Positions 1,174 through 62,765 of a stretch of 64,000 bases of DNA are shown one piece after another (the first letter of the stretch is position 1; each line of letters opens with the position of its first letter). Source of the DNA: a virus (Duplodnaviria > Heunggongvirae > Uroviricota > Caudoviricetes); the IMG/VR virus record IMGVR_UViG_3300044712_002337, positions 18,564-82,563 of that record. One strand, written 5' to 3'. The notes beneath the pieces are model-generated. The model did not search any database. It was not told the origin of the DNA and worked only from the letters and a program-made list of their open reading frames with translations. The position numbers and the translations under genes were made by a program.

Positions 1174-1247
1174 CGGGCGGGGGGGGTGGGCGGCGGCCTT
1201 TACCCCGCCCGGCCGGGCCGGGCGATTTTAAAAGGGGAAATTCACCG

Positions 1248-4139
1248 TCACAGGGCCACCGCCTTCCCGCCGGTCAGCCACGCCCGGGTGGTGGCCCCGG
1301 CCGGCATCAGCTCGCCCCCGGTCGCCCGCCCGGACGCGGCGAACTCCTGGGCGTTCGTGCGGCCGGCCGCGGTCGCCCCGTACTTCGTCACCCCGGGCCC
1401 GCCGAACGTGATGTCCGCCTCGTACACGGCGGGGGCGTCGGCCGCTTGGCCGTCCCAGTACGCCTGAAAATCATCGGTCGACACCGCCTGGTGGTTGTGG
1501 ACGAACACCTGGGCCAAGGCCATCGGAATGGCCGTGGCGTTCAGAGCGCCCGGGTCCGACTGGAGCGTCACCACGCCGGCCGTGGACCCGCCCGGCTTGA
1601 CCAGCACGCAGTCGGTGAGGACGAGCCGCTGGCGGGTCTGGGCGATGTCGCTTGTCGCTTGCGGGCCGCTGCCGGGGAACGCGACCAGCACCGGGCGGGG
1701 GGTGCGGACGGTGGCGGTGGTGACGACCAAATCCTTGTTGCGGTCCGCGCCGCCGCTCAGCCACAGGCCGATGGGCGTGAACCCGCCGGCCCAGGCGAAC
1801 GTGTCCGTCTGCACGTCGCCGTTCGTCAGTTCGATGCGGGCCCCCCACGTGTCGATGCTCATGCCGGCGTACACGAACTTCCGCAGGGTGAACCCCCGCA
1901 GGATGTACGGCGCGGCACCGCCGTAACTGCGACAGAATTCGTGCGTGTACGCCCACATCGACACCGGGCCTAACTCCATCTGCGGTTGGTCGGCCACGGC
2001 CCAGCCCGGCCCGTGGTCGAAGCTCATCCCCTTGAACGTCGCGTACCCCTCGAAGCTCAGCCCGGCGAACGGTATGGTGCCGAACGACACCGAGCGGTAT
2101 TCGACCCCGTCCGCCCCTTCGCCGACGTTCGCCCCGCGGTACAACGGGACTTTCACCAGGGCGCCCCCGCCCGGCCGCACCCCGCCCCGCTGAAGGTAGT
2201 CGGCGTGGATCAGGTGCCCCAAGTATTGCAGCCCGGAGTCCGGGTTGGTCGTGTACTGGCCCACGTTGGCCAGCACGCACCGGGTGATGCGGTGCCAACC
2301 GAGGTTGAGCATCCAGAGCCCGTTCGCGACCGCATCATCCGGCCCGCCGTGCACGTCGGTGAACGAGCAGTCGACGAAATCACACCCCACTTCGGTGCCG
2401 ATTTCCAGGCTGAGCGCGGCAGCCGTGCAGTCGTGGACGTTGCACTCGTCGAACCGCACGAAGCTGGTGTCGTGGACCGCCACCCCCCACTTCCGCCCGT
2501 CGCGGAGGCCCAGCCCTTTGAACCGGTACTGGTAGTCGCCGTGGGCGTCCGCGTCCGTGCCGGTCAGCCGGTTGAGCACCGCGACGAACTGCGGAACGGT
2601 TCCGGCGCTCGTCAGGGTGAACGGGCCGCTCCCCGTCACCGTCACCTGACCGGCCCCGAACAGGGAATCGAGGGCTGCCTGAATGTTGGTCCGGAGGGTG
2701 GCCGGAGTCGCGCTCCACGCGATTTCGGCGGTCTGCTGAGACCGCCCGGCCGGGCTCACGTACATCAGGCGGAACGTGCCGCCGGTGACGGTGCCGCCAA
2801 ACGTGAGCGTCGATACTAGCGGGTCTGTGGCAACCGGCCCGGAGCAGTGGTGCAAATGCCACGCGTACCGGCCCTTCTGGTTCGGTCCGTACTTGGTCAG
2901 CAGCCCGTTCGCGGCCACAGCCCCGGAATCCGGCTCGGGTCCGGCGTGATTCGCGGTGCGGCCCAGGCTGTCCAGAAACACGTACTCGGCTTCGACCGCC
3001 ACCCGGCCGGTGAACAAGACGTGCCCGCGGGTGCCGGCCGGGTTCGCCGACCGCACGACGACGTTGCGGTGCGGGTTGATGACGTGGCACCGGAACCGGG
3101 GGGTGCCGTCCAGGTCGTAGGCCCCGGCGTGGTCGTCTTCGAGCGGGGCGGCAAAGCTCACCACGCTCCCGCTGATCCCGGTGATGGTCCTCTCTTCCGG
3201 GCGGAACGGGAAGCCGAACGACTCGCTGTGCCCGAAGTGGTAGACGGGCTCGGTGGACAGAATCGCGATGCGGTCACCCACCCGCCACCCGGTCGGCTCA
3301 AATTCCAGGGTGACGCTCGTGTGCCCGGCCATCGGGTCGGTCGTGACCCGCAGCTGGTCGGCCCGCGTTCGGCGGGCCGCCCCGCCGAACCGGACGGTCG
3401 ATGTGTCCATGGCGATCAGCCCGCGGCCGAGTTGCAGCGGGTCGACGTACCGGTCCGGGAGGGCGGTGTCGCGGAACGTGAGCGTGGCCGTGTGCGAGGC
3501 GTCGACACGGGCCGACGAACTGCCCATCTCATAAACGCCGTCGTCGAGTACGAACACGTCGTCGGCGACCAGTTCCGTCGTGGCGTCCGTGGCGAACTTC
3601 AGGTGCCCGCCGGTGTACACCATGACCGACCGGCAGGCGGCGTTCGTGTTCCGCAAGGTGACGGTGTGCCCGGCAATCACCACGTCCGTGCCGGCGGTGG
3701 GCACCACACCCCCGACCCACGTCGTGGTCTCGTCCCAGAACCCGGACTGTGCGGACAGGGTGCGGGCCGCCCCCAGCCGCAGCGGGAACCCTTCCCCGTG
3801 GTGGGCCATGCCGAACGGCAGCACGTCGGCGGTCAGCGGGGCGTTGCCGACGCCCGCCGCGGTGGCCGCGTTCGCCGTCAGGGCGAGCGTGACGGCCTCC
3901 GTCGGGGACACGCCCCGGGACAGCGTGTACTGCAGCACCGCCGACCCGGAGCCGGCCGAATAGGTGGCGGTCACGGCCCCGCCGGTCGCGGTCAGCGTCG
4001 GCACGGCCGCGTGGGTGACAGACCGGTCGAACGTCAGCCGCAGGGTCTGCGGGTCGCCGTGGTGGGCCGGCCACAGGGCCGCCACCCGCAGCCGCGGGCG
4101 GGGCGGGCGCTTGGCTGCGCCGGGGCTGAACGGGGGCAC
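1248..4139 (-). CDS. Large virion protein: G8 domain plus right-handed beta-helix (possible depolymerase/adhesin)
   Basis: WDETTTWVGGVVPTAGTDVVIAGHTVTL...GGHLKF...DDGVYEMGS fits G8. Later VAVHDTSFVRFDECNVHDC-type repeats fit PbH1/pectin-lyase fold. 963 aa. Confidence 0.7.
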   Translation of the reverse strand: MPPFSPGAAKRPPRPRLRVAALWPAHHGDPQTLRLTFDRSVTHAAVPTLTATGGAVTATYSAGSGSAVLQYTLSRGVSPTEAVTLALTANAATAAGVGNAPLTADVLPFGMAHHGEGFPLRLGAARTLSAQSGFWDETTTWVGGVVPTAGTDVVIAGHTVTLRNTNAACRSVMVYTGGHLKFATDATTELVADDVFVLDDGVYEMGSSSARVDASHTATLTFRDTALPDRYVDPLQLGRGLIAMDTSTVRFGGAARRTRADQLRVTTDPMAGHTSVTLEFEPTGWRVGDRIAILSTEPVYHFGHSESFGFPFRPEERTITGISGSVVSFAAPLEDDHAGAYDLDGTPRFRCHVINPHRNVVVRSANPAGTRGHVLFTGRVAVEAEYVFLDSLGRTANHAGPEPDSGAVAANGLLTKYGPNQKGRYAWHLHHCSGPVATDPLVSTLTFGGTVTGGTFRLMYVSPAGRSQQTAEIAWSATPATLRTNIQAALDSLFGAGQVTVTGSGPFTLTSAGTVPQFVAVLNRLTGTDADAHGDYQYRFKGLGLRDGRKWGVAVHDTSFVRFDECNVHDCTAAALSLEIGTEVGCDFVDCSFTDVHGGPDDAVANGLWMLNLGWHRITRCVLANVGQYTTNPDSGLQYLGHLIHADYLQRGGVRPGGGALVKVPLYRGANVGEGADGVEYRSVSFGTIPFAGLSFEGYATFKGMSFDHGPGWAVADQPQMELGPVSMWAYTHEFCRSYGGAAPYILRGFTLRKFVYAGMSIDTWGARIELTNGDVQTDTFAWAGGFTPIGLWLSGGADRNKDLVVTTATVRTPRPVLVAFPGSGPQATSDIAQTRQRLVLTDCVLVKPGGSTAGVVTLQSDPGALNATAIPMALAQVFVHNHQAVSTDDFQAYWDGQAADAPAVYEADITFGGPGVTKYGATAAGRTNAQEFAASGRATGGELMPAGATTRAWLTGGKAVAL

Positions 4140-4142
4140 GGG

Positions 4143-4460
4143 TCAATCTCGCAGTACGAGTAGGAACCGGGCGATGACCACGAGGCTGTCCGCCATGCTC
4201 TGCACGGCCGTCAGGGCTTCCAGCTTTTCCGGCGAGTCGGGGGTGGCCATCAGCTCGGCCACGAGGTCCGGGCTCGACACCTCGGCCGCGTCGGTTGGTC
4301 CCCACGCCGTGGCGTTGGCCGGACAGGGCGTGAAGGACGCGGTGTACTGGTTCGTCGTCCGGTTCACGTCGATACAGACGCGGCGGACGCCGAGCCGGTC
4401 CGGAACGAATCCGGTGGACGGCGGGACGGTGTACGACTCGGGGTTGGGAATCGGAATCAC
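4143..4460 (-). CDS. Hypothetical virion-module protein, 105 aa
   Basis: Tightly packed in the minus-strand operon; GC3-rich coding frame. Confidence 0.7.
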   Translation of the reverse strand: MIPIPNPESYTVPPSTGFVPDRLGVRRVCIDVNRTTNQYTASFTPCPANATAWGPTDAAEVSSPDLVAELMATPDSPEKLEALTAVQSMADSLVVIARFLLVLRD

Positions 4461-4471
4461 GGGGGCTCCGG

Positions 4472-7323: not shown

Positions 7324-7592
7324 CAGCGGATTCCGTGCAGGCCGGTGGCGGTGGTGCCGGTGGCGAGCACCCGCCGCACCCGCACCGGCAGGAGGAAGGC
7401 GTCGGGGACGGTCCAGGCGTCGGTCAGCCCGTCCACCCCCTCGAACGCCACCGCCCCGCCGGCGGTCACGTACACGCTCCGCAGCGGCGGGTCGTAGGTG
7501 GTGGCGTCGCTCGGGGTGACGGCCACCGACCCGAACCCGGGGGACTCGGGGGCGTTGCCGGACACCTGGTAGTCGGACGGGGAGAAGGACAT
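7323..7592 (-). CDS. Head-spike base protein (RcGTA Rcc01079-like)
   Basis: AVTPSDAT...LRSVYVTAGGAVA...LPVRVRRVLATGTTATG matches the spike-base family pattern. First gene after the capsid. Confidence 0.8.
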   Translation of the reverse strand: MSFSPSDYQVSGNAPESPGFGSVAVTPSDATTYDPPLRSVYVTAGGAVAFEGVDGLTDAWTVPDAFLLPVRVRRVLATGTTATGLHGIR

Positions 7593-7671
7593 GGGGGCCT
7601 CGGGGTGGGGTCGCCCGCCCCTACCCCGCCCGGCCGGGCCGGGCGACGTGAAAAGGGGAACGCCCCCCACG

Positions 7672-7699
7672 AAAAAGGGGAGGGCCCCTGCCCTCCCCC
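7672..7699 (-). terminator. Intrinsic terminator after the major capsid gene
   Basis: Minus strand: GGGGAGGGC-loop-GCCCTCCCC followed by TTTTTC. Confidence 0.7.
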
Positions 7700-7729
7700 G
7701 TCTCAACCCCGTGCGGGCCCCGCGGGCGG

Positions 7730-8719
7730 TTACGCCTGGCCGAGGAGCAGGTGCCGCTCGTCCAGCGCCCCCACCCCCCACTTGGCCCGCCCGTACCACC
7801 CCTTCTTGTCCTCCTTGTGGAGGGTGGGGTCCTCGTGGATTTCGATGTTCATGCCCACCGGCATGACCACCTTGTCCTTGTGCCGGGTGTCCACCCCGAC
7901 CACCAGGTTGGTCTTCGAGTTGGTGAACGTCCCGCCCAGGGTGTCGTCCCAGTACTTCTGGTACACCCCGTCCGGCCCGAGCTCGTCGATGTCCACGTAC
8001 TCCACCTTGGCGAACCCGAGAATCTTGCCGTCCTCGGCGTCCAGGATGTCGGTGCGGTACATGTCCCCGATGTCGGTGGCGGCCAGGTACAGGATGGTCT
8101 CCCGCAGCTCCGGGCTCATGTACAGCCGGTTCATCCGGTACCCCCGCTTGGAGGTGTACTTCTGCCCGGCCCGCCGCATCTTCGTCTGCATCTGCCCCTG
8201 CAGCTTGAGGGAGAAGGTGCCGGCGGTGGCGGCGGTGTCGACCACCAGGAACCCGCGGTCGTGGGCGGTCTTGAGCACCAGGTGGAACACGTCGTCGTTC
8301 ATCGACATCTGCCACCCGGCGGCCATCCCGTCCAGGGCCCGGGCGATGACGTCGAAGTCCCCCCGGCGGACGCTCTCCAGCGGCACCCCGATGGTGTTCC
8401 CCCGCATGCTCATGGGGATGCGGAGGTTGTCGCTCTCCACCATCCGCTGCGGGATGTCCCCGATGCGGGGGATGTAGAACGCCTTGAACTCCCCCATGTC
8501 CTTGTTCCAGAACAGGTCCTTGGGGTAGTACACGTCGGCGAACTCGTCCGTCGGGCGGACGGTGGCCAGCTCGCCGAACAGGGCGTCCTGGAAAATCTGC
8601 TCCTTCACGTACCCGCCGACGGCCTCGGCCACGGCCGGCTCGGCCGCCGCCGCCACGGCCAGGTCGGCCGACGCGCTGTCCTTGAGCAGGGCGATGAACT
8701 CTTCGGGTTTCTCGAACAC
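7730..8719 (-). CDS. Major capsid protein (HK97-fold, probable)
   Basis: 329 aa, in the order portal, protease/scaffold, decoration, this gene, terminator. C-terminal GWYGRAKWGVGALD is capsid-like. The call rests mainly on synteny. Confidence 0.7.
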   Translation of the reverse strand: MFEKPEEFIALLKDSASADLAVAAAAEPAVAEAVGGYVKEQIFQDALFGELATVRPTDEFADVYYPKDLFWNKDMGEFKAFYIPRIGDIPQRMVESDNLRIPMSMRGNTIGVPLESVRRGDFDVIARALDGMAAGWQMSMNDDVFHLVLKTAHDRGFLVVDTAATAGTFSLKLQGQMQTKMRRAGQKYTSKRGYRMNRLYMSPELRETILYLAATDIGDMYRTDILDAEDGKILGFAKVEYVDIDELGPDGVYQKYWDDTLGGTFTNSKTNLVVGVDTRHKDKVVMPVGMNIEIHEDPTLHKEDKKGWYGRAKWGVGALDERHLLLGQA

Positions 8720-8848
8720 GGGGGCTCCGGGGGCGTGAAGCCCCTTCTGTGTGGGTGGGGCGGGCGGGGCCCGCCGGGAGGGTGTGTGACTTCGCTCTTT
8801 TAACGCGGGCGGGTTCGCCGCCCGGGGGGTGCGGGGGCCGGCCCCCGC

Positions 8849-10811: not shown

Positions 10812-10814
10812 GGG

Positions 10815-11057
10815 TTATTTCACCTTTTTAAAATCGCCGCCGGCGGCGGCGGACGTGTGCTCGGACGTGTGCGTCTTGTTCGCCCGGTCGGCCACCCGCC
10901 GGCACAGGCTCATCGAGTACACGGGCGGCTCGCCGGCCGGCCCGCAGCAGCCGTAGGTCGAGAAGCAGACGCTCTCCAGGTCGGTCACCGGCACCCCGTC
11001 CCGGGTCAGCGTGAACGCCTTGGTGACGGTGTCGAAGGTGGCGGTTATCTGGGCCAT
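10815..11057 (-). CDS. Hypothetical protein, 80 aa
   Basis: Small ORF between portal and protease, bracketed by the repeat element. Confidence 0.6.
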   Translation of the reverse strand: MAQITATFDTVTKAFTLTRDGVPVTDLESVCFSTYGCCGPAGEPPVYSMSLCRRVADRANKTHTSEHTSAAAGGDFKKVK

Positions 11058-11128
11058 GCTCGCGGGCTCGCGTTCTCGGGGTCCGCGGGGCGGAGCCCCG
11101 CGATTTTAAAAGGGTGAAAATACGGTCG

Positions 11129-15978: not shown

Positions 15979-16025
15979 GGTCTCCCGCGGGCTGACGCCC
16001 GCGATTTTAAAAGGGTGAAATACCA

Positions 16026-16964
16026 TTAGGGCACCGGGGCCGGGGCCGCTTCGGGTAGCGGCTCGGCCGGCGGCAGGGCTTTGAGGACGGTGTCCGGGGT
16101 GAACAGCGGGCTGTCGACGGTGCCGTCGGCCAGTTTGATGGGGCGGGCGAGCCGCTCGGCCTCCCGCCTGCCCACCTGCTTCATCAGGGCCGCCCGCTTG
16201 CCCTCGGTCTCCCGCTTGTCCTCGGACAGGACGACCTTCATCAGGTCCTGGAAGGACATCGTCTTGGTCAGCCGCTCAATCCGCTGCTCGCGGGTCGACT
16301 TCAGGGACTCGAATATCTTCCGGTGCTTCTCGTCCAGGTCGGAGTGCTCGCGGACGAGGGAGTTCAGTTGACTCCCGAGTTGGCGGGCCCGCTCCTGTAA
16401 GCCTTCCATCGTGCGGACGGTGGCCTCGTCCCGCGCGATGGGCTGGCCGGGGGCGGCCAGCGGCCACAGCTTGTTGATACGCTCCCACTCGGCCTCGGCG
16501 TCCCGCCGCCGCTCGATGGCTTCTTTCTGGGCGGCCAGGTTGCGGTGCTTGAGCACGCTCAGGGTGACCGCGTCGTGCACCTGCACCCGCTCGGTGGCCA
16601 GCACGTCCCCGCCGAACTGTTCGAGCATGTCCGCGTACTGGTCCTCGTAGAACCGCTGCTCGTGCGGGAAGAAGGACGACTTCACCTGCCGCCACAGCTC
16701 GCTGTTGTGCAGGTCGGCCAGCAGCCGCTCGCGGGGGGCGGCGGCCGGGCCGCCGAGGGCGGACTGGGCGGCGGCGGCGGCCAGCTCGTCGGCCGTCGCC
16801 TTCGGGAACAGGCGGGCGACCGCCTTGGCGATGGTCTCCGCCGGCCGGCCGAGGGCGGCGGCGATGTCGGCCACCGGCTGGCCGAGCTCCACCCGCCCGC
16901 GGATTTCCCGCAGCTCCTGGGAGGTCATCCCCCGCTTCGGCTTGTCCCGCCTCGGCTTACTCAC
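16026..16964 (-). CDS. Probable terminase small subunit / HTH coiled-coil protein
   Basis: N-terminal HTH-like segment (VADIAAALGRPAETIAKAV), long coiled coil, upstream of terL. Confidence 0.5.
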   Translation of the reverse strand: MSKPRRDKPKRGMTSQELREIRGRVELGQPVADIAAALGRPAETIAKAVARLFPKATADELAAAAAQSALGGPAAAPRERLLADLHNSELWRQVKSSFFPHEQRFYEDQYADMLEQFGGDVLATERVQVHDAVTLSVLKHRNLAAQKEAIERRRDAEAEWERINKLWPLAAPGQPIARDEATVRTMEGLQERARQLGSQLNSLVREHSDLDEKHRKIFESLKSTREQRIERLTKTMSFQDLMKVVLSEDKRETEGKRAALMKQVGRREAERLARPIKLADGTVDSPLFTPDTVLKALPPAEPLPEAAPAPVP

Positions 16965-17625
16965 CGCCCGGTCCCCCCTCCCCCGGTTTTTCCGGAAACC
17001 CGAACGACTCCAGTAGACTCGGCGCGTGGTCCCGGATAATTATAAGTATGGTTTCTCGTATCTTCTCCCGGCGGTGGCGGGCGACGGGCCGCCCGGCCCG
17101 CATGCGGAGGTAGTCGGTGCGGAGGGCGGCGGGCAGGCGGGCGTCGAGCAGGGCGGCCAGCTCGGCGGCGGCGGCCGCGTCCTCCTGCTCGGGCGGGCGG
17201 GTGCCGGCGTCCGGGCAGGCGAGCACCGCCTCGTCGTACCCGGCCGGGGAGAGGAGGCCCTTCTTGGCGTCGTTCAGGGCCCGCCAGGCGGCGTACGGCC
17301 GGCACGCCGCGGCCACCCCGGCGGCCGGGCACGGGGTGCCGGCGTGGCACGCCCGGCACGGCGGGTCGTTCCGCTGGCACTTGGCCCGGTACAGGTGGCC
17401 GAGCTTGTTGTGGAAGTGGGCGCGGAGGAACGGGGTGGGCGGGCGGGAGCGGTCGTACGCCCCGTCCCGCCACGCCTGCAGGGCGAGGATGCGGGCCTCC
17501 TGGGCGATGTCCTCGCCCTCGAAGTACCCGAACGCCATCTGCCGGCGGATTTTGGTGATGAGCCCCTCGGCCGCCGCCCAGTACTCGGGGGACGGCGGGT
17601 CAGCGGGCGATTTTGCACTGTTCAA
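16957..17625 (-). CDS. Phage sigma-70/ECF-like factor with a Cys-rich insertion
   Basis: Region-2-like EDIAQEARILALQAW...YDRSRPPTPFLRAHFHNKL and region-4-like C-terminus. CQRNDPPCRACHAGTPC...C lies between them. TTG start is uncertain. Confidence 0.7.
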   Translation of the reverse strand: MNSAKSPADPPSPEYWAAAEGLITKIRRQMAFGYFEGEDIAQEARILALQAWRDGAYDRSRPPTPFLRAHFHNKLGHLYRAKCQRNDPPCRACHAGTPCPAAGVAAACRPYAAWRALNDAKKGLLSPAGYDEAVLACPDAGTRPPEQEDAAAAAELAALLDARLPAALRTDYLRMRAGRPVARHRREKIRETILIIIRDHAPSLLESFGFPEKPGEGGPGGE

Positions 17626-17746
17626 GGGCGGCCTCGGCGAGGACGGGGTCCTCGGGTTCTGCGGGCGGGTCGACGGCCGGGCCGACCAGCAGCGGGTCGG
17701 CGGCGGCGACGAGGACGAGCGGCTCGTCCGGCGTGTCGGGGGACAT
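17600..17746 (-). CDS. Small acidic protein, 48 aa
   Basis: MSPDTPDEPLVLVAAADP...CKIAR; GC3-rich frame. Confidence 0.45.
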   Translation of the reverse strand: MSPDTPDEPLVLVAAADPLLVGPAVDPPAEPEDPVLAEAALEQCKIAR

Positions 17747-17822
17747 ACGGTTTCCCTTTTAAAACGGAGAACGGTCCTCCGTTCTCCCATACCCCGGGCG
17801 GGCCCCGTGCCCCGGAGGCGGC

Positions 17823-20495: not shown

Positions 20496-20789
20496 CGTGC
20501 GCGGGCGGGCGGGCGCGTGGGCGGGCGGGGTCCGGGGCGAACCCCCTTCGGACCGCGAGCCGCCCGGTTCTTTTAGTCGGGCCGTCCGGCACGCCACAGG
20601 TAGCCGCCGCCGCCGCCGCCCGGGGGCGGACCGGCAGGACGGGCCGAAACCCGTCCCTTTGGGGGCGCCCACCCCGACCGGCCCGCCGAACGCGGATTCA
20701 GTGTACAAAATAACACAACCGTGTCTAAAAAAGCGCACAACGATTGAGTTTCCCTTTTAAAATGACGGGGCGGCGCCCGGGTATGTGGG

Positions 20790-21604: not shown

Positions 21605-21799
21605 ATGAAAAAGGTCGCCGCCGCCACCGCCCGTGAGCAACGCACTACGCGTCGCCGCAAGATTCTGGCCCGCCGCCGGGCCGAGTGGGACCGCCTGAAC
21701 GAATGGCGGGCCGACTTCCTGGCCTACCAGGCCGCGCATAACGGGGAGATGGATAAGCGGATGACCCGGGCGTACGAGGAAGAACTGCTCTCCCTGTAA
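21605..21799 (+). CDS. Basic hypothetical protein, 64 aa
   Basis: AAGGAG SD then ATG. Confidence 0.7.
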   Translation: MKKVAAATAREQRTTRRRKILARRRAEWDRLNEWRADFLAYQAAHNGEMDKRMTRAYEEELLSL

Positions 21800-21890
21800 G
21801 TTCACTATGTTAAAAGGGTTAAGTCACCCCATACCATCGCACCCCCATCCCGCCCCCGTGGGCACGGTAGGGGTTGCTCGGAGGACAGAA

Positions 21891-22729: not shown

Positions 22730-22875
22730 CGGACGAACCCCGAAGCCGCGTCAGGGGAACCCGGTGGGTTAACCTCCCGTCGCCGGGCACGGCCCCTCCC
22801 CCGGTTCGAGCCCGGGCCGCGGCACTGGTGTGATTTCCCCCTTTTAACATCGCGGGCGCAGCCCGCGGAGGCCCC

Positions 22876-23070: not shown

Positions 23071-23099
23071 AAATCACTATTTTAAAAGGAGAAATACTC

Positions 23100-25103: not shown

Positions 25104-25139
25104 GGGCCTTCGGCCCAATTTTAAAAAGGTGAAAACGTC

Positions 25140-42100: not shown

Positions 42101-42827
42101 CCTGACCGGCCTGTCGGTGCCGGACCTGAAGCGGGAGCTGGCCCGCGGCCTGCAACTGTCGGCCGACGCACTGCTGTACGTGGCGGCCGTGTGGCGGGAG
42201 CTGGAAGCCCGCGGGGAGGACCTGACCGAGTTCAAGACCGGCATCGGCCGGGCCATCCCGCTCATCGCCGCCGGCCGGCTGGCGGCCGAGGCGGTGGTGG
42301 CGTTCGCCGGCCGCCCGGGGGTGCTGGACGCCCTGGCCGGGCTGCCCCTGGCCCGCCAGCGGGAGCTGGCCGCCGGCGGGACGGTGAGCGTGCTCACCCC
42401 GGAGGCGGCGACGGCGACGGCCGTGCCGCTGGCCGCCCTGCCCGCCCAGGCGGTCCGGCTGGTGTTCGCCGACGGGGTGGAGCGGACCCCGGAGCAGCAG
42501 CGGGCGGCCCTGGTCGCCCGCCGGCCGCGGCGGGAGCGGGGGCCGGCCCGCCAGTACCGGGTGAACGTCGACCGCGACCGGCGGGTGGTGCGGGTCGGCC
42601 GCATGGAAATCCCGGTGGAGACGGTGCTGGCCGCGTTCGCCGAGGCGGCCGCCGGGCTGGACGGGGCCGACCCGGCGGTCGCCCGCGACCGGGGCGAAGG
42701 GCTGCCCATGGCCTCCTGCTACCTGACCGCCGACGAGGACGAGCGGCTGAAGGCGCTGTGCAAGGCGAAGAAGCTGGACCGCGGCGACGCGGTGCGGCGG
42801 GCGGTGGTGGCGATGCTCCTACTCTGA
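42072..42827 (+). CDS. Probable DNA-binding protein with C-terminal ribbon-helix-helix
   Basis: C-terminus CYLTADEDERLKALCKAKKLDRGDAVRRAV. Confidence 0.55.
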   Translation: MTTLATPAPDLTGLSVPDLKRELARGLQLSADALLYVAAVWRELEARGEDLTEFKTGIGRAIPLIAAGRLAAEAVVAFAGRPGVLDALAGLPLARQRELAAGGTVSVLTPEAATATAVPLAALPAQAVRLVFADGVERTPEQQRAALVARRPRRERGPARQYRVNVDRDRRVVRVGRMEIPVETVLAAFAEAAAGLDGADPAVARDRGEGLPMASCYLTADEDERLKALCKAKKLDRGDAVRRAVVAMLLL

Positions 42828-42879
42828 CCTTCCCGCAATCCCGGCGGGCCGCGCCCGCCATTTTAAAAGGGAAAATCAC

Positions 42880-43353
42880 ATGCCGACCATCACGATTGAC
42901 ATCGACGACGTCCGGAAGGCCGGGGGTGTACGGGAAGCCCTGGCGAAGAAGTGCGAGGGGTCCGACGCGGTGGCCTGCGGGGTCATCGGGATGGCGTTCG
43001 CCACCAGCGGGCCGGGCCACGGCTGGTCGCAGACGTTCGGGGCGGAGGACTTCGCCGCCCGCGCCCTGGACGAGGGTTGCGGGGCGCTCGCCTACCTGGA
43101 CCTGGACGACGGGCGGGTGGCCGCCCTGGAGGACGGCGAAGTCGTCTGGACGGACGAGAGCGACGTGCGAATCGAGTGCCCGGGCGTCGAGGACGCTCTG
43201 GCCCACCCGGAGGTCGCGGCCGAGATGGCCCGGGCCGTGCGGGACTATCACCACCCGGAGAGCGACGTGGCGGAGTGGAAGAAGTTGGTGGTCGCCATCA
43301 AAGCGGCCGGCGAGGCGTTCGACCGGCTGGACCCCGAGCGGTTCGACGGCTAA
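42880..43353 (+). CDS. Hypothetical protein, 157 aa
   Basis: Repeat-element SD. Confidence 0.7.
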   Translation: MPTITIDIDDVRKAGGVREALAKKCEGSDAVACGVIGMAFATSGPGHGWSQTFGAEDFAARALDEGCGALAYLDLDDGRVAALEDGEVVWTDESDVRIECPGVEDALAHPEVAAEMARAVRDYHHPESDVAEWKKLVVAIKAAGEAFDRLDPERFDG

Positions 43354-44024: not shown

Positions 44025-44303
44025 ATGATGGCCGCGAACACCCAGACCCGCCGCGAAGCCGTCGAGATGGTGCTCTCCGTCCTCCGCGACGGCGCCCGCA
44101 ACGACCGGTATTTGCGGCAGGCCGACGACGGGCACTACTACACCACCCCGGACCACACGTTCCTCGGCGACGACGGTCCGTACAGCCCGCCGGGCGTCAC
44201 CATCCCGGTCGCCTACGACACCCCCGAAGAGCAGGAAGAGGGGTGGGCCGAAGCTCTGCTCGACGAGTTGGACGAGAAGGTTGCCGGCGGGGGCGACGAG
44301 TGA
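44025..44303 (+). CDS. Acidic hypothetical protein, 92 aa
   Basis: GGGAG SD. Confidence 0.65.
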   Translation: MMAANTQTRREAVEMVLSVLRDGARNDRYLRQADDGHYYTTPDHTFLGDDGPYSPPGVTIPVAYDTPEEQEEGWAEALLDELDEKVAGGGDE

Positions 44304-44332
44304 GACGCCGTCACCCCGGGGGTGATATCACC

Positions 44333-44365
44333 GAGAGGCCGCCCGGGTGGGCGGCCTCTTTCGTT
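44333..44365 (+). terminator. Intrinsic terminator
   Basis: GAGGCCGCCC-GGGT-GGGCGGCCTC then TTTCGTTT. Confidence 0.7.
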
Positions 44366-44415
44366 TGGCGGGCCGAGCCCGCCGGACCAACTAACTTCCG
44401 AGCGGAGCGAACAAG

Positions 44416-45063
44416 ATGACGAAGTCCAAGCCTAAAACCAGCCGGGACACGACCATCACCCTGGCCCTGGCGAACCCGTCCGAGCGGGCGACTCACCTGG
44501 AAGTCTCGGTGTCGTACGACAAGGGCGGCCCGAACTACTTCTCGGGCTCGACCGTGGCCCGCGGCTACTATCTCAGCGTCGGCCCGGTGAAACTCGCCCG
44601 CGGGATGCGGAGATTCGAGATTATGTCCCACCGCGCGGTCCTGCTCGAAACCACCGGGCGGAGGTCGGACAAGCGGCTGGGCTGGCACTTCGAGCAGGCC
44701 AAAGCCTCCGTCACCGCCCAGTCCGGCCAGGCGTTCGAACTGCTGCAACGCTTCCGGGCGGCGGAGGCCGCCAAGGAGGGGGACCGGCGGCGGGTTTATC
44801 ACGTCTGCTGGGACGCCCCTTTTATCAAAATCGACCACTGTTGGTGCTCCGAGAGTGCTGTCGCACTCGCCAAAGTGGTGACCGCCGGCGGGGCCGACAA
44901 AGCGCCGCTTCTGGCCGACGCCCTGGAGGAGGCCGGGTGCGACTGCCCGCTGACGCTCGCAGAACTTCGGCGACCGGACGACGAGGTGGCACGTCGCGCC
45001 GGCGAGCCGGGCGTGGCCCTCGTGGTTGCCCGGCACGTGCTCAGTCATCAGGCGTCTTACTGA
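44416..45063 (+). CDS. Fusion of a phage domain and a Gemmataceae-type LADALEEAGC domain
   Basis: N-terminal VSYDKGGPNYFSG...RGYYLSV; C-terminal PLLADALEEAGCD resembles the planctomycete ILADALQDAGC motif. Confidence 0.65.
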   Translation: MTKSKPKTSRDTTITLALANPSERATHLEVSVSYDKGGPNYFSGSTVARGYYLSVGPVKLARGMRRFEIMSHRAVLLETTGRRSDKRLGWHFEQAKASVTAQSGQAFELLQRFRAAEAAKEGDRRRVYHVCWDAPFIKIDHCWCSESAVALAKVVTAGGADKAPLLADALEEAGCDCPLTLAELRRPDDEVARRAGEPGVALVVARHVLSHQASY

Positions 45064-45134
45064 CGAAGTCTATTTCACCCTTTTAAAATCGCTGGGTTTC
45101 ACCCCGCGGACCCCGAAAGTACAGTGAGGTTAGA

Positions 45135-45884
45135 ATGTCCGCGACCCTGGAACGCGGCCGGGTTCCCCTGCGCGTGTTGGAAGAGCGGGTGGGCGGGTTG
45201 AGCACCCCGGGGAAGATGCCGTTTTACGGGTTCTCCCTGCCGGCCCAAGCCTGCAAGACCGGCTCGAAGCTGCGGGAGGTGAAGGGGTCGGTGTGCGAAA
45301 ACTGTTACGCTCTACGTGGCAACTATTTGTACACTAATGTACAAAAAGCCCTATGGAGGCGGTTGGAAATCCTGGAGGCCGACCCGGACGCGTGGGTGGA
45401 TAACCTGGTCGCCGTCCTCAAGCGGCGGTGCCGCCAGTTCACCCCCACCCCGGACGACCCGTGGCCGGCGGTCCGGGCTCACGACGCGGGCGATTTGCAG
45501 GGGGTGTGGCACCTGCGGGCCATCTGCGAGGTGGCCCGGCGGCTGCGGCGGGTGAGGCTGGCGGACGGAACCCGGGCGGCGGCGAGGCTGTGGCTCCCGA
45601 CCCGCGAATACGGGTTTGTGAAGGAGTTCCTGAACGGGGGCGGCGTCATCCCCCGCAACCTGACCGTCCGGCTGAGCGTTCACATGGTGGACGAGGGCCC
45701 CTCCCCCGGGTTGAGGAAATGGGCGCGGGAGAACGGTTTGGTCTTGTCCACGGTCAGGAAGAAGACTATCTTAGAAAATCACGGGGAGTGGGTGTGTCCC
45801 GCCCCGAAGCAGGGCAATGTTTGTGGAAAGTGTAGAAGTTGCCATGACCGAAGAATCGCCGTCATCTGCTACGGAAAGCACTGA
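45135..45884 (+). CDS. Gp88-like Cys-rich protein (mycobacteriophage gene 88 family)
   Basis: LSTPGKMP...SLPAQAC..GSKL....GSVC..CYA...HDAGDLQ...WLPTRE...NLTVRLS...CPA..QG..CG.CR.C. Confidence 0.8.
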   Translation: MSATLERGRVPLRVLEERVGGLSTPGKMPFYGFSLPAQACKTGSKLREVKGSVCENCYALRGNYLYTNVQKALWRRLEILEADPDAWVDNLVAVLKRRCRQFTPTPDDPWPAVRAHDAGDLQGVWHLRAICEVARRLRRVRLADGTRAAARLWLPTREYGFVKEFLNGGGVIPRNLTVRLSVHMVDEGPSPGLRKWARENGLVLSTVRKKTILENHGEWVCPAPKQGNVCGKCRSCHDRRIAVICYGKH

Positions 45885-46935
45885 GCAGTGGGAATTTAAT
45901 GACCCCGGCGTCATAATCCCGCTGACGAATGACGGAAGCGTTGTGGTTTCGCCGGAGGATGTAGAGCTCGTGTCTACTCACCGGTGGAGGCTTGCGAGAT
46001 GCCGCAGAAAGCTCTACGCCGAGTCGACGGAAAAGGTAAATGGAAAATGGAAGAAGATATTACTACACCGCTTTATTCTCCGCCCTCCGTCCGATATGCT
46101 CGTCGACCACAAAAATAACAACGGGCTCGACTGTCGTCGTTGTAACTTGCGGCTAGCCACACATACCCAAAACCAAAGAAATGCTCCCTCTAGGATCGGG
46201 TCTTCAAGCAAGTTCAAGGGGGTTTGGTTTGCTGATAAACCGGCCAGGTGGCTAGCCCAAATATGCGACATCTATCTGGGCACATTCTCCGACGAGGTAT
46301 TGGCGGCAGAAGTTTATGACCACGCCGCCGTTCATATTTTTGGAGAGTTTGCTTGGCTGAATTACCCCAGCCGCCGAGACGAGTATGCCGCACAACCATT
46401 CTACTCAAACATGATTCGCGTCCGGCGAACGCGTGGCGAAAACCCCTACGTAGGGACGCAAAAGCGTGGGAACAGTTGGCTAGCTGATTGTAGCGGCTAT
46501 CCGCAGACTTATAGGGGTAGTTTTGCCACCGGCGAAGCTGCGGCGATGGCTTACGATTTGGCGAAAGTTCGTCAAGCAGGCACGACCGCTAAGGTCAACT
46601 TTCCAGAACGTATGTCCTACTACCTCGACGCCATACTCGGCGGCGTCGCCGAATCGATGTCAAAAACCGAGTTCAAAAAGTACGTGCGAGATAAAGTCCG
46701 TGACTACCTAAAAGGTAGATGGGTCGAAAAGACACGGTGGATGGGAAGCCGCGGTAAGCAGGATAGATTTGCGGGACTCGGCTGGTACGCAGAGGATGTG
46801 ATAGCCATTATGCCGAGTCTCACGGACGTGGAAGCCGCTAGTTGGCTAGCTCGCAACGATGATGAGATACGTGAGCGAATTCGCGCGTTAGGTGCAGACG
46901 TCATTAAGTCTATGCTTGAAACGGAATTCTCCTGA
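45844..46935 (+). CDS. HNH-AP2 homing-type endonuclease with an extra C-terminal domain
   Basis: LLHRFIL...VDHKNNNGLDCRRCNLR...QN; two AP2-like SKFKGV / AAEVYD / AAMAYD segments; lower GC. Confidence 0.88.
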   Translation: MTEESPSSATESTEQWEFNDPGVIIPLTNDGSVVVSPEDVELVSTHRWRLARCRRKLYAESTEKVNGKWKKILLHRFILRPPSDMLVDHKNNNGLDCRRCNLRLATHTQNQRNAPSRIGSSSKFKGVWFADKPARWLAQICDIYLGTFSDEVLAAEVYDHAAVHIFGEFAWLNYPSRRDEYAAQPFYSNMIRVRRTRGENPYVGTQKRGNSWLADCSGYPQTYRGSFATGEAAAMAYDLAKVRQAGTTAKVNFPERMSYYLDAILGGVAESMSKTEFKKYVRDKVRDYLKGRWVEKTRWMGSRGKQDRFAGLGWYAEDVIAIMPSLTDVEAASWLARNDDEIRERIRALGADVIKSMLETEFS

Positions 46936-47006
46936 ACTTGTTCCCATTATGCTACGCCCGCCACTGAGCGGGCCGGTGGCCCGCGATGTTAAAAGGGGAA
47001 AATCGT

Positions 47007-47261
47007 ATGCCCGTGAAAATCACCGTCGGCCCCTCCCCCGTGCCGCCCGTCCGGTACACCCCGCTCTCCCTCCTCCTGAAGCCCGGCATCTACCGCCCCG
47101 AGGACGAGCCGAACGACTGGCGGGTGGTCGTCTACCGCAAGGACCAGGCGCTGTACGTGGACCTACAGGCCGACCAGATTGAGCCGTACGACCCGGCCTT
47201 GTGGACCGGGTACTTCGTGCGGACGGGCGAGAAGCGTGTCACCCTCACGTTCGAGGACTAA
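47007..47261 (+). CDS. Hypothetical protein, paralogue of 50457
   Basis: PGIYRP...LYVD...IEPYDPALW vs PGVYSP...LWTD...FEAVDEDLW. Confidence 0.65.
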   Translation: MPVKITVGPSPVPPVRYTPLSLLLKPGIYRPEDEPNDWRVVVYRKDQALYVDLQADQIEPYDPALWTGYFVRTGEKRVTLTFED

Positions 47262-50456: not shown

Positions 50457-50708
50457 ATGAGAGTTTTTATTAAAAACAAAGCCCCGCCCGGCCATTTTCT
50501 GAGTCTGGATGAAGTCTTATCTCACCCCGGCGTTTACTCGCCCGTCGGCGAGAGCGGGTGCGAGGGAGAACGCCTGATTACCCTGTCGCCAGGGGCGACC
50601 CTGTGGACGGACGGGGGGCGGTTCGAGGCGGTGGACGAGGACTTGTGGTCGGAAGTCCCCTTCCGACGGGTGAAGACGGGCCGGCTGGTGGTCCTGTTCG
50701 GACAGTGA
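50457..50708 (+). CDS. Hypothetical protein, paralogue of 47007
   Basis: ATGA overlap. Confidence 0.6.
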   Translation: MRVFIKNKAPPGHFLSLDEVLSHPGVYSPVGESGCEGERLITLSPGATLWTDGGRFEAVDEDLWSEVPFRRVKTGRLVVLFGQ

Positions 50709-50764
50709 TTATTTACCCTTTTAAAATGTGGGGCTCCACCCCACGCCAGGAGGAGGTAGCGACC

Positions 50765-53174: not shown

Positions 53175-53204
53175 CCTCCGCACACAGTGAAAGACAGGAA
53201 TGCG

Positions 53205-53228
53205 GGCGGCCTTGGCCGCCTCTTTTTT
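53205..53228 (+). terminator. Intrinsic terminator
   Basis: GGCGGCC-TTG-GCCGCC then TCTTTTTT. Confidence 0.7.
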
Positions 53229-53244
53229 CGTACAGGGAGTTCCT

Positions 53245-55333: not shown

Positions 55334-55392
55334 GTGGGGCTCCGCCCCACAGCCCCGTGGCCCTGCGGGCCACATTTTAAAAAGGGAAACCT

Positions 55393-55806
55393 GTGACCGT
55401 TTCACCCGAACACCCGGCCGTCCGCGCCGCCGCCAGGTGGTGGGCCGACCAGCTTCGCACGCGGCGGGCCTCGACCGTCGGCGACGAGACCATGGACCTG
55501 ATGATGATGGTGGCAGACGGCCAGAACCCGTCGGTCTCCCCCGAAGACGCCGACCGGTTCGAGTCGGCCCTGGCTCACGAAATCGCCGCCTTCCTCTCCG
55601 GCTCCCGGTGGGAAGAGTGGCCGGAGGTGGTCGACGTGGATTACTGGCCGGACCCGACCCTCGGCCGGGCGCTCGGCGCGATTGGTCGTGCCGGTGGGTT
55701 GAACGTGCTTCCCGTCAAGACGGTGATGTGGGTGGGGCCGAAGAAGGTCGAAGTCCGCCGCGGCTACCGGCAGCCGGAGGTGGTGGTCTGGTCTTCGGAT
55801 GTGTAG
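55393..55806 (+). CDS. Hypothetical protein, 137 aa (VDYWPD..L)
   Basis: Exactly bracketed by inverted repeat elements. Confidence 0.75.
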   Translation: MTVSPEHPAVRAAARWWADQLRTRRASTVGDETMDLMMMVADGQNPSVSPEDADRFESALAHEIAAFLSGSRWEEWPEVVDVDYWPDPTLGRALGAIGRAGGLNVLPVKTVMWVGPKKVEVRRGYRQPEVVVWSSDV

Positions 55807-55864
55807 TATTTTACCCTTTTAAAATCGCGGGGCTCTGCCCCGCGGACCCCGAGGAAACAGCCAA

Positions 55865-56319: not shown

Positions 56320-56699
56320 TGACCTGGGAAGAGATTCGAGAGCGGGCCGAGGACGACCACGAGGAACACGCCGACCGCCTCATCCGGGTGCGGGGGTGTC
56401 AAATCGGCGGGCTGAAGGCGGACGACGACGGCGAGTACGAGCCGGACCCCGAGTACCTGTACTTCCGCAAGGGGCTCTGGGTTGTAGTCGGGAAAAAGTT
56501 TGATTATCTCACAGACACAAACGAGAGCGCCGGGCTGCTCGACGCCACCTGGGAGGCGGAAGCCCTGCCCGGTCAGTTGAGCCCGGGCGAGTACGTTTGC
56601 TGGATTGACGGCCCGACCTACTACCTCGACGGGCGGCGGGAGACGCCCTCCTGGATGGAGGTCGGGGAGAAGGTCATCGACCTGACGCTCGCGGACTAA
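56316..56699 (+). CDS. Acidic hypothetical protein, 127 aa
   Basis: ATGA overlap. Confidence 0.65.
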   Translation: MMTWEEIRERAEDDHEEHADRLIRVRGCQIGGLKADDDGEYEPDPEYLYFRKGLWVVVGKKFDYLTDTNESAGLLDATWEAEALPGQLSPGEYVCWIDGPTYYLDGRRETPSWMEVGEKVIDLTLAD

Positions 56700-56737
56700 G
56701 CGGCCTGTCGGCCGCGTTTTAAAAGGGAGAATCACTG

Positions 56738-57091
56738 ATGAGTTCGTACTACGTCCCGACCTACCTGGAGTTCGGCCCCCGCCAGGCGGACGGGTGGCCC
56801 GCCTTCGTCACCGAGGAAGGCAAGGCGTACGCCGCGGAAAAGGTGGCCGAGCTGTTCGACAGGTACACCCTGGTCGACCTGGACATGTGCCACCGGGCCG
56901 TTTTCGAGCGGCGGAAGGGGCAGCCCGAGTGCTTCAAGGGGGTCGCCCTCTGGGACGCCATCTACGCCGTCTGCCACCGGGCGATTCTGGACAACCAGGC
57001 GGAGCCGGTGTGGCGGCGGACGGGGTACGGCAACCTCCTTCGGGAGGAGAACCTGCGGCGGAAAGCGGCGGGCGAAGCTCGGCCCTCTTGA
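56738..57091 (+). CDS. Hypothetical protein, 117 aa
   Basis: Repeat-element SD. Confidence 0.65.
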   Translation: MSSYYVPTYLEFGPRQADGWPAFVTEEGKAYAAEKVAELFDRYTLVDLDMCHRAVFERRKGQPECFKGVALWDAIYAVCHRAILDNQAEPVWRRTGYGNLLREENLRRKAAGEARPS

Positions 57092-57139
57092 CGAGAGAAA
57101 TCTTCTACCTTATAAAACCAAAAGCTCAGGGGACTGGCC

Positions 57140-62003: not shown

Positions 62004-62095
62004 AGGGCTGTACCCATGGCGGACACTATTGTCTGGTTCGTTGTCATCCTCGCCCTTTGGCTCATCGCGATGAGGGGGCTGAGAAAGGGGGACTG

Positions 62096-62428
62096 ATGCG
62101 TGCGACCAAGAGCAACGACGGTAAGTACCGGTTCGACCTGAAAATCACCTACCGGCTGGGCCTGATGGATGTGGTACAGGGGGCGGCCGACTGGGTGCGG
62201 TCGCAGGAACCGGAGTGGCCGGAGGAAGTGGAGGAACTCATCAAGAAGATGTGCCGGACCACCGTCCTCAACCACCTGCGCGAACTGGTCAAGCAAGACG
62301 GGCTGGGGTGGTCGATGCGGTCGGGTGACTACGTCCGCGAATACCTGGACCAGTACCCGGGCGCGGCCGGGCTGGAGGAACAAGCCGAGGCGAAGGCGCT
62401 GAAGCTGTTCCCGGAACTGGCGAAATAG
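62096..62428 (+). CDS. Hypothetical protein, 110 aa
   Basis: AAGGGGG SD then ATG. Confidence 0.65.
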   Translation: MRATKSNDGKYRFDLKITYRLGLMDVVQGAADWVRSQEPEWPEEVEELIKKMCRTTVLNHLRELVKQDGLGWSMRSGDYVREYLDQYPGAAGLEEQAEAKALKLFPELAK

Positions 62429-62488
62429 TGGGGCTCCGCCCCACAGCCCCGTGGCCCTACGGGCCACATTTTAAAAGGTGAAAATCAT

Positions 62489-62710
62489 ATGTCAGTCGGA
62501 ACCGGCATCAGCGCGACCGCCCACCTGAAGCGAGACATCACGCTGTGGGCGGGCCAAACGTCCTCCGTCACCGGCGAGCTCATCCAGGGGACCGACAAGG
62601 ATTCCATCGGGTTCCTGGTCGAAGGGCCCTACTCCCAGAAGGCGGTGGTCGTCGTCCCGAACCACAACATCACCGCCCTGGTGCGACTGGTCGAGAAGTT
62701 TCCTGAGTAG
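62489..62710 (+). CDS. Hypothetical protein, 73 aa
   Basis: Exactly bracketed by inverted repeat elements. Confidence 0.7.
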   Translation: MSVGTGISATAHLKRDITLWAGQTSSVTGELIQGTDKDSIGFLVEGPYSQKAVVVVPNHNITALVRLVEKFPE

Positions 62711-62765
62711 TATTTTTCCCTTTTAAAATAGCTGGTGAACCCCGCGGACGCCAAGAGGAAGACGC

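Follow-up and report, generated by a model that had tools for sequence, protein, structure and literature searches.

Is a hairpin that recurs between the genes of a phage, in both orientations, read in mRNA or recognized on DNA? The question is raised by a 64,000-nucleotide stretch, here called the window, which spans bases 18,564-82,563 of the 176,391-bp IMG/VR virus record IMGVR_UViG_3300044712_002337 (GC 69.7%). A GC-rich hairpin is joined there to an AT box and a purine tail, and about 90 copies of this hairpin-tail signal lie between the phage genes. The element is private to this phage lineage. Its features point to recognition on duplex, extruded or single-stranded DNA rather than in the mRNA of neighboring genes.

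Copy number and distribution

The core TTTTAAAAGG occurs exactly 16 times in the window against 0.00 expected from 100 shuffles, and 41 times with one mismatch allowed against 0.94 expected. Across the whole record, a weight matrix recovers about 105 sites, with none in shuffles at equal score, and a covariance model gives 86 matches at E<=0.1. About 30 full-length covariance-model matches fall in the window, in agreement with the roughly 32 copies counted in an earlier reading made from the letters alone (the sequence-only reading). The model was built from 18 copies, an ungapped subset with 7-bp stems, because MAFFT alignment misplaces stems that differ in length. In the consensus, a GC stem (6-8 bp), its 3-nt loop and the second arm are followed by an A, T(T/G)TTAAAAGG and finally G(T/G)GAAA(T)(TCA). 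The AT box is an easily melted palindrome, TTTTAAAA, preceded by one A, and the purine tail, GG(G)(T/G)GAAA(T)(TCA), is an unstructured segment of 12-15 nt.

A strict form of the motif is found as 12 single matches in viral contigs, all of them low-GC and none with a repeat, and as 34 single matches over unrelated genomes among 185,579 species genomes, none of which is multi-copy. Metagenome contigs yielded 59 single matches and no high-GC contig with several copies. These chance matches outside the phage lie mostly in low-GC DNA. One 50%-GC contig (L102) holds two look-alike copies and has no proteins in common with the phage. Because the strict motif is multi-copy nowhere else, it is not a generic host signal, at least in sequenced species representatives, and the suspicion that it might be equally common at host gene boundaries was not borne out.

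CheckV classes the record as complete, and the phage is large, GC-rich, uncultured, tailed and temperate. Gene calling by a codon-usage script gave 254 genes (86% coding), a set that is approximate for a few low-GC genes. The structural genes include capsid, portal-like, terminase-like and tape-measure proteins; among the others are an integrase, helix-turn-helix (HTH) repressor-type proteins, DnaB, a Toprim primase, a single-stranded DNA-binding protein (SSB), a ribonucleotide reductase and ThyX. No close relatives were found by megablast and tblastn against 50,697 phage records. Capsid and terminase searches returned at best proteins 36-56% identical, encoded on contigs of 37-43% GC without the motif, and exact cluster look-ups for relatives gave nothing but the same phage in another assembly.

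A stem conserved as structure

Perfect stems of at least 6 bp that end 0-2 nt before the core accompany 50 of 82 strong copies, compared with 1-2% of control positions. Among the 63 copies with a stem of at least 5 bp there are 45 distinct stem sequences; the stem is 6-8 bp long in 57, the loop is a triloop in 49, and the distance from stem to TTTT is exactly 1 nt (an A) in 46. This exact spacing suggests that the hairpin foot and the tail are recognized together. In the model-based alignment, 97.3% of cells are paired and all seven pairs covary, having changed on both sides, and shifting the partner by 1-3 columns lowers pairing to 33-59%. Such an alignment is biased towards structure; the hairpin-frequency test against control positions is independent of it. 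Only 5 of 514 cells are G-U pairs, and stem mismatches favor neither strand. Selection acts on the structure of the stem, not on its sequence, and pairing is almost purely Watson-Crick, which bears out the sequence-only description of variable stems with a kept hairpin and tail.

Loop composition is also constrained. C-G pairs close 44 of the 49 triloops, and 30 of the 49 are GNA on one or the other strand against about 10% expected, as anticipated by the earlier mention of C-GNA-G triloops. The strand carrying GNA is unrelated to the sense strand of the genes (14 versus 16); its 20:10 distribution in favor of the pyrimidine-tail strand is not significant (p ~0.1). Stems are flanked by GGGGTC or GCCCC on one side and by A-TTTTAAAAGG on the other, and as RNA they have stabilities of -13 to -20 kcal/mol. 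The tail folds no better than shuffles, and a second AT stem within it (ATTTT with AAAAT) was rejected on that ground and because the TGTT variant is uncompensated.

Placement and orientation relative to genes

Copies are nearly all intergenic and occupy 55-80% of co-directional gaps of 40-119 nt. Relative to the flanking genes, 35 are sense (class A) and 34 antisense (class B), with the same picture in the plus and minus arms. The spacer A is kept in 33 of 35 sense and 32 of 34 antisense copies, and stem and tail are equally conserved in both classes. This balance speaks for DNA recognition, since a signal read in mRNA should be one-sided, as the promoters of this phage and its separate GAGCGGAGCGA motif are. 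Single copies are also present where neighboring genes diverge or converge, and in four or five gaps two copies stand back to back. For the plus arm of the window, 14-17 sense and 9-10 antisense copies were counted, close to the 16 and 10 given by the sequence-only reading. Its statement that two antisense copies never occur in a row holds within that arm and fails genome-wide, where there are 10 antisense-antisense neighbor pairs.

In the sense layout, a stop codon is followed by the hairpin, A-TTTTAAAAGG, the tail and a start codon. Eighteen short-spacing sense copies have the start 6-14 nt past GG and no other Shine-Dalgarno (SD)-like word, in line with the idea that sense copies supply the SD; judging from position, the tail is very probably the ribosome-binding site of these copies. 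The same role fits neither the 12 or so long-leader sense copies, whose start lies 30-39 nt away behind its own SD, nor the 34 antisense copies. Along the genes, the antisense layout runs from the stop through the tail complement, TTTTAAAA-T and the hairpin to a C-rich stretch with an ordinary SD and the start.

Reading frames enter the element in both classes. Of 32 antisense copies, 20 have the stop of the gene before them within their tail, consistent with the earlier remark that antisense copies sit close after stops, and in 9 of 33 sense copies the preceding open reading frame (ORF) is translated into the hairpin or core. Such translation sits uneasily with a role that requires an RNA hairpin to form. 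A complete element (8-bp stem plus TTTTAAAAGG) also lies in frame and without stops at genome 165150-165200, within a 389-aa ORF (164379-165548, minus strand); it is either an in-frame insertion or the product of two genes mis-joined by the caller.

REP, BIME and REPIN sequences are high-copy extragenic palindromes of 20-40 bp with an end tag, found in both orientations and with proposed roles in mRNA stability and protein binding (PMC3733652, PMC3116915, PMC3479197). The phage element is likewise a high-copy extragenic palindrome, in both orientations in and between operons, with a conserved tag at one end and neighbors that are often inverted. It differs in being phage-borne rather than chromosomal, in its 20-nt tag of AT box plus purine tail in place of GTAG/CGTC, in stem sequences that vary among copies, and in inverted partners that usually lie a gene apart rather than forming one unit. 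In addition, no RAYT gene was found: Y1/RAYT transposases (PF01797) have no match in the phage at E<=1, in a search whose controls respond. A host-encoded RAYT enzyme is possible, yet no genome among the 185,579 carries the repeat.

A REP-like role in mRNA punctuation would have the palindrome fold in any transcript that crosses it and act as an exonuclease barrier or weak attenuator, while single-stranded UUUUAAAA would serve as an RNase E/Y-type site at which polycistronic RNA is cut into stable pieces. Enterobacterial REPs act in this way (PMC3733652, PMC3479197), the RNA stems are stable, and the copies lie inside long co-directional operons in both orientations. Moreover, two of the three parts, the stem and TTTTAAAA, are palindromic and therefore orientation-free. 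The asymmetric purine tail, however, is equally kept in antisense copies, where the mRNA holds its complement, and upstream ORFs are translated into about 45% of copies. The near absence of G-U pairs, a stable loop type without sense-strand preference, and the prevalence of triloops where the real terminators of the phage have tetraloops also argue against mRNA punctuation, which we regard as conceivable but rather doubtful.

Separate terminators, start motifs and promoters

The phage possesses canonical signals of its own. Its terminators have 9-10-bp stems, 4-nt loops and 5-6 T, and are found at the following positions of the window:

7592-7730 (-), canonical terminator directly after the major capsid gene
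44303-44416 (+), canonical terminator
53204-53230 (+), canonical terminator

About 15 sigma-70-type promoters (TTGACT, 17 nt, TAAAAT or a TATCTTATAAAA variant) are all oriented with the genes, one of them upstream of the tRNA-Met gene and two before leaderless starts. The latter precede the minus-strand starts at genome 110074 and 143566, with exactly 6 nt from the -10 TAAAAT to GTG or ATG, and these genes are probably expressed from leaderless mRNAs. The single tRNA-Met(CAT) gene (genome 117050-117119, minus strand) has its own consensus promoter, whose -35 is abutted by a tails-in pair of elements. Another promoter, at window 57086-57117 (+), consists of TTGACG, 17 nt and TATAAA within CCTTATAAAA, 31 nt before gene 57140. 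Further promoters of its family, which is marked by a conserved TATCTTATAAAA box, lie at genome 87.07, 93.42, 98.0 and 125.9 kb.

A second motif restricted to this phage, (GC)GAGCGGAGCGA(A/G)C, precedes start codons by 3-6 nt; it has 13 matches in the window against 3.4 expected, 12 of the 13 in sense orientation. Sites of this motif are as follows:

window 24273 (+)
window 30255 (+)
window 35880 (+)
window 43374 (+)
window 44400 (+)
window 56046 (+)
window 63351 (+)
genome 93.5 kb
genome 95.2 kb
genome 98.0 kb

This motif resembles the start-associated sequences (SAS) of Cluster K phages. SAS and extended SAS (ESAS), described in Cluster K mycobacteriophages and Cluster EF Microbacterium phages, are private SD-containing motifs a few nucleotides before starts, preceded in half of cases by an inverted repeat and absent from the host (PMC3203893, PMC7302621). 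The hairpin-tail element shares with them its restriction to the phage, the inverted repeat upstream and, in its short-spacing sense copies, a probable SD before the start. SAS, in contrast, number 10-19 per genome in virtually one orientation, whereas half of the copies described here are antisense, after stop codons, and the phage has GAGCGGAGCGA as a separate SAS-like motif that is sense-only.

In a single gap (L057:10880-11020, genome ~93.38-93.52 kb), a long-T terminator comes first; a sigma-70-type promoter and then a first hairpin come next, and the element follows, ahead of the GAGCGGAGCGA motif and a start. Because terminator, promoter and element occur together here, the element constitutes a third kind of signal, and its place in this order suggests that it lies in a transcribed leader or operator position.

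The layout of the sense copies, with a stem, an A, UUUU and then AAGG 6-14 nt before a start that has no other SD, could also be seen as an intrinsic terminator that leads into the next gene's ribosome-binding site. Antisense copies would then be bidirectional terminators, and one copy is indeed found between convergent genes. Orientation and context largely refute this reading, which we consider highly improbable. None of the copies passes a terminator rule of at least 5 U in 8 nt, as the A after the stem is followed by only 4 T, and antisense copies have no T-run after the stem in the gene direction. The 35 sense and 34 antisense copies stand in co-directional arrays, and some 35 in-operon terminators right before starts would silence the genes downstream. 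The tail is kept where it is not an SD, a true terminator coexists with the element in one gap, and the motif is absent as a repeated signal from the 185,579 genomes. The view of the sequence-only reading that an SD or terminator alone does not suffice is thus strengthened, given that the antisense half is equally conserved and that real terminators, sigma-70 promoters and a sense-only SD motif exist separately.

A phage-specific promoter was considered next to these signals, either read by a sigma-like factor or acting as an extruded hairpin, and perhaps firing in both directions from TTTTAAAA (TAAAAT on the bottom strand). Coliphage N4 has three hairpin promoters with its early genes, each with a 5-7-bp stem, a 3-nt loop and conserved flanks, and these need a giant virion RNA polymerase. 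The N4 hairpin is extruded from supercoiled DNA and stabilized by a G-A loop. By analogy, the stem and loop sizes given above, the C-G closure and the preference for GNA or its complement would fit such hairpin promoters, provided that the stems extrude. Further points in favor of a promoter are the spacer A, which completes TANNNT on the bottom strand, and the TGTT variant, which forms a TGn-extended -10 on the top strand. The 76-nt divergent gap from which both long arms start has one copy as its sole AT-rich feature, a hairpin-T6A4-hairpin variant occupies another divergent gap, canonical promoters are scarce between 1 and 87 kb, and weak sigma-like genes are present.

Several observations nonetheless make a promoter decidedly unlikely. 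As promoters, half of the copies would drive antisense transcription of the preceding gene, and one copy sits downstream of a separate promoter. Sense copies, with the start 7 nt past TAAAAG, would give leaders of 1-10 nt without an SD, whereas the real leaderless genes have exactly 6 nt from the -10; for antisense copies, the transcription start would fall within the stem. There is no conserved -35: a -35 upstream of the bottom-strand TAAAAT was rejected with 3 full promoter matches against 2.5 expected, and an extracytoplasmic function (ECF)-type -35 in the tail, judged by inspection, has no -10 at the right distance. The N4-type proposal in particular is weakened by the 1:1 orientation and by the failure to find an N4-type or other phage RNA polymerase, the search for T7-type enzymes (PF00940) having given no match in the phage, although its controls were silent as well. 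PeSLs of T4-type phages, which combine a stem-loop with an AT-rich conserved box before small accessory genes and are suggested to mediate gene shuffling (PMC2839356, PMC4122927), contain a full sigma-70 promoter (-35, N17, -10) pointing with the genes. The element differs from them in lacking a -35, in its 1:1 orientation and in the separate promoters and terminators that may stand alongside it.

Copies in the window

The covariance-model matches in the window are listed with their coordinates, strand and description:

1205-1247 (+), antisense copy, relative to minus-strand genes; 8-bp stem, loop CGG
8784-8825 (-), weak sense copy upstream of the capsid gene; core CGTTAAAAGA; E 0.006
10812-10853 (-), sense copy; start codon 13 nt past the core
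11083-11125 (+), antisense copy behind the portal-like gene; loop GGA
15985-16026 (+), antisense copy; 4-nt loop
18152-18181 (+), sense copy, tail only, without adjoining GC stem; start 7 nt past the core
20742-20780 (-), antisense copy; weak stem
21793-21829 (+), sense copy; tail with poor stem
22828-22869 (-), antisense copy; 7-bp stem, loop TGC
23074-23101 (+), sense copy, tail only; start 11 nt past the core
25099-25140 (+), sense copy; 5-bp stem
26494-26536 (+), sense copy; TGTT variant
28630-28671 (-), antisense copy
30629-30668 (+), sense copy; upstream ORF runs through hairpin and core and stops in the tail
31291-31332 (-), antisense copy; the gene that ends at 31293 has its stop in the tail
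33016-33057 (+), sense copy; one A-C stem mismatch
35825-35868 (+), degenerate sense copy; core TGTCCAAAGG, then a GAGCGGAGCGA leader
36886-36925 (+), sense copy of the long-leader class; start 31 nt past the core
37621-37661 (-), antisense copy; overlaps the 3' end of the upstream ORF
39518-39552 (+), decayed sense copy that has lost TTT, immediately upstream of a TnpB insertion; E 0.06
42841-42882 (+), sense copy; start 10 nt past the core
45067-45110 (-), antisense copy; G-A stem mismatch
46966-47008 (+), sense copy
50705-50746 (-), antisense copy; 5-nt loop
52586-52627 (+), sense copy; upstream stop TGA inside core variant TTTTGAAAGG
55355-55396 (+), sense copy, left bracket of gene 55393-55806; second hairpin before it at 55334-55350
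55803-55845 (-), antisense copy, right bracket of gene 55393-55806
56698-56738 (+), sense copy; G replaces the A before TTTT
62449-62490 (+), sense copy, left bracket of gene 62489-62710; second hairpin before it at 62428-62444
62707-62748 (-), antisense copy, right bracket of gene 62489-62710; imperfect stem

The copy between the two long arms is the following:

17743-17787 (-), sole copy of the 76-nt divergent gap; its tail adjoins the first leftward start and its hairpin lies towards the first rightward gene

About eight sense copies form a subfamily in which an extra upstream hairpin (GGGGCTCCGCCCC) is followed by ACAGCCCC; in the window, these hairpins lie at 55334-55350, 62428-62444 and 36866-36883. 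Beyond the window, the divergent gap at genome 101153-101271 holds a variant, TTTTTTAAAA, with a GC hairpin on each side, each facing a divergent gene.

Neighboring copies and bracketed genes

Adjacent copies differ in orientation in 53 cases and agree in 21; by absolute strand, 57 of 81 differ (p = 3e-4). The excess is short-range, with inverted pairs outnumbering direct ones 24:4 below 1 kb and 17:16 above 2 kb, and among short-range pairs, tails-in is as frequent as tails-out. The simplest reading is that deletion has removed direct repeats (about 45 bp each) that lay one gene from each other while inverted ones survived, which would not amount to a function.

Genes 55393-55806 and 62489-62710 are bracketed by inverted pairs, just as the sequence-only reading had it. 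Pairing or shared descent of bracketing copies was rejected, as their tails have an identity of 14.15, compared with 14.07 in random pairs, and their stems are no more alike. A foreign composition of the bracketed genes was likewise rejected, with a GC content at third codon positions (GC3) of 0.899 against 0.904. Because the pairs resemble random ones, GC3 is the same and tails-in equals tails-out, the bracketed genes provide no evidence for a cassette unit, and the earlier suggestion of exchangeable gene cassettes loses ground. Integron attC sites come one per cassette, in one orientation and with an integrase and attI. The mixed orientation and the equal frequency of tails-in and tails-out do not match this, and the sole tyrosine recombinase of the phage sits in a standard integration module.

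A broader role in recombination or mobility would make the copies PeSL-like linkers for cassette exchange, gain and loss, or a miniature element resembling a REPIN or a miniature inverted-repeat transposable element (MITE), spread by a transposase. The random orientation, the back-to-back doublets in single gaps, the complete copy in frame within the 389-aa ORF and the many upstream ORFs that end within the element, as after an insertion, are all compatible with it, as are the depletion of direct repeats below 1 kb and the four TnpB (IS605-type) genes of the phage. The 45 compensated stems beside near-invariant tails, however, indicate long selection in place rather than recent copying. Together with the lack of a Y1/RAYT transposase in the phage and of repeated copies in candidate host genomes, the ordinary similarity of bracketing pairs, the unchanged GC3, the balance of tails-in and tails-out pairs, and the failure to find relatives in which breakpoints could show, this makes mobility quite unlikely.

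Cluster O mycobacteriophages and Cluster EG Microbacterium phages carry dyads of 17-18 bp in more than 30 copies, mostly intergenic and without meaningful orientation, and one such repeat flanks a gene missing in relatives (PMC4351075, PMC7302621). The element is similar in copy dispersal, intergenic placement and lack of orientation. The dyads, by contrast, have an invariant arm and no asymmetric tail, and a third of them lie in genes, whereas the phage element has a free arm sequence and a kept structure.

Spacing on each strand is more even than chance, with coefficients of variation (CV) of 0.52 and 0.66 against 0.89 +/- 0.08 (0 of 5000 shuffles) and a median of 3.9-4.6 kb. Such spacing might reflect strand-specific loading or priming sites on single-stranded DNA, similar to ssi sites, in which a stable hairpin with a conserved 3' tail every 4 kb or so per strand would serve the replication, recombination or nicking machinery of the phage. 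The features track the strand of the element and not the genes, GNA triloops lean towards the pyrimidine-tail strand, and a Toprim primase, DnaB helicase and SSB are encoded. The evenness, however, arises largely because close direct pairs are lacking, known replicative primases need only trinucleotides, no strand switch is seen around any origin, and the GNA bias is not significant. We therefore consider loading or priming sites very unlikely.

Candidate reader proteins and mobile genes

Proteins proposed earlier as binders, labeled a sigma factor (16957), a ribbon-helix-helix (RHH) protein (42072) and a ParB-like protein (50765), proved weakly supported or unsupported by Pfam and PHROGs. Weak sigma-like proteins are encoded at window 16957-17625, genome 98386-99195 and genome 141324-141860, and there are several HTH proteins as well, cI-type ones near genome 106-108 kb among them. 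A further candidate of the HTH or sigma-like kind is encoded at window 42072-42827. Proteins of 1230 aa, 1614 aa and more than 2179 aa are tail- or tape-measure-like or have no match. A search of the phage for a type IB topoisomerase, prompted by the CCCTT in the tail complement, found none.

Four TnpB/IS605-OrfB genes with a Cas12f-like TNB domain are present without TnpA, at window 39624-40868 (+), genome 88555-89649 (+) and two more sites beyond the window. The window copy lies in lower-GC inserted DNA just after the decayed element copy; a relationship between TnpB insertions and the element was rejected, as their ends are unrelated. Additionally, an HNH/AP2 endonuclease gene lies inside a low-GC patch at window 45817-46935, and a 985-aa ORF at window 58008-60965 matches an HNH endonuclease.

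A putative DNA-recognized punctuation signal

The 1:1 orientation with an equally kept asymmetric tail, the Watson-Crick stems, a loop choice unrelated to the sense strand, the exact join of stem and AT box, translation into copies, and coexistence with true promoters and terminators all argue for recognition of the element itself. We tentatively favor the possibility that it is a private gene-boundary signal recognized on DNA by a putative phage factor and punctuating operons, and among the candidates of the sequence-only reading, a putative protein-binding site is the best fit. The AT box may help the palindrome to extrude as mini-hairpins, or may at least mark the hairpin foot. The hairpin foot together with the tail would be recognized by a protein of the phage itself or by one of the host that the phage has redirected. 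About 90 occupied sites would thereby punctuate the long operons and would most likely act on RNA polymerase as regulated roadblocks or conditional stops. Positions suggest secondary uses in translation: the tail of sense copies would serve as the SD of the next gene, and the tail complement of antisense copies would often supply the stop codon of the previous one. A phage factor is supported by the temperate lifestyle and by candidate readers among the encoded proteins, which include an integrase, proteins of the HTH repressor type and weak sigma-like proteins.

The proposed role would be akin to that of stoperators in temperate actinophages, working in either orientation. Stoperators of Cluster A mycobacteriophages are hairpin-free sites of 13-14 bp, oriented with transcription and bound by a phage regulator that blocks transcription genome-wide, and the conserved inverted repeats (CIRs) of Streptomyces phage phiC31 are sequence-conserved palindromes. 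By analogy, the element would resemble both as dozens of operator-like sites at the gene boundaries of a temperate phage. Its 35:34 orientation departs from the single orientation of stoperators, which are mentioned in PMC3203893 and PMC4351075.

Other observations weigh against a DNA-binding phage factor. Stoperators are orientation-biased and hairpin-free, so the analogy extends to role only. The stem with A-UUUU in sense copies resembles a weak intrinsic terminator, for which exact stem-to-T spacing is a requirement, and a rigid duplex binding site would not usually show a distance from GG to GAAA that varies over 0-3 nt. The even per-strand spacing could point to a strand-specific process. 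To our knowledge, extrusion of a 7-bp palindrome in vivo is known for special cases only.

In a more speculative form of DNA recognition, supercoil-extruded mini-hairpins would be genome-wide loading sites on both strands, about every 4 kb per strand, for a phage factor such as a hairpin-reading transcription factor without an N4-type polymerase or a nicking or priming enzyme. G-A triloop hairpins would then be a general signaling device of a double-stranded DNA phage, a proposal that we regard as unlikely.

Several phage groups have dispersed repeats of their own (SAS/ESAS, stoperators, Cluster O dyads and PeSLs), mostly without a known function. The present family is a particularly clear example, with roughly 90 copies, a stem kept by structure only, its exact join to an AT box and purine tail, and an orientation independent of the genes. 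The combination of a structure-only stem with gene-independent orientation separates mRNA-read from DNA-recognized signals more sharply than the known families do and thereby offers a defined substrate for finding the reader, although its value is limited for now, as this uncultured phage lacks close relatives. Should the reader be a regulator, 170 kb would be controlled through one type of site. If the hairpins extrude, this phage would provide the second natural system, after N4, in which small DNA hairpins act as signals.

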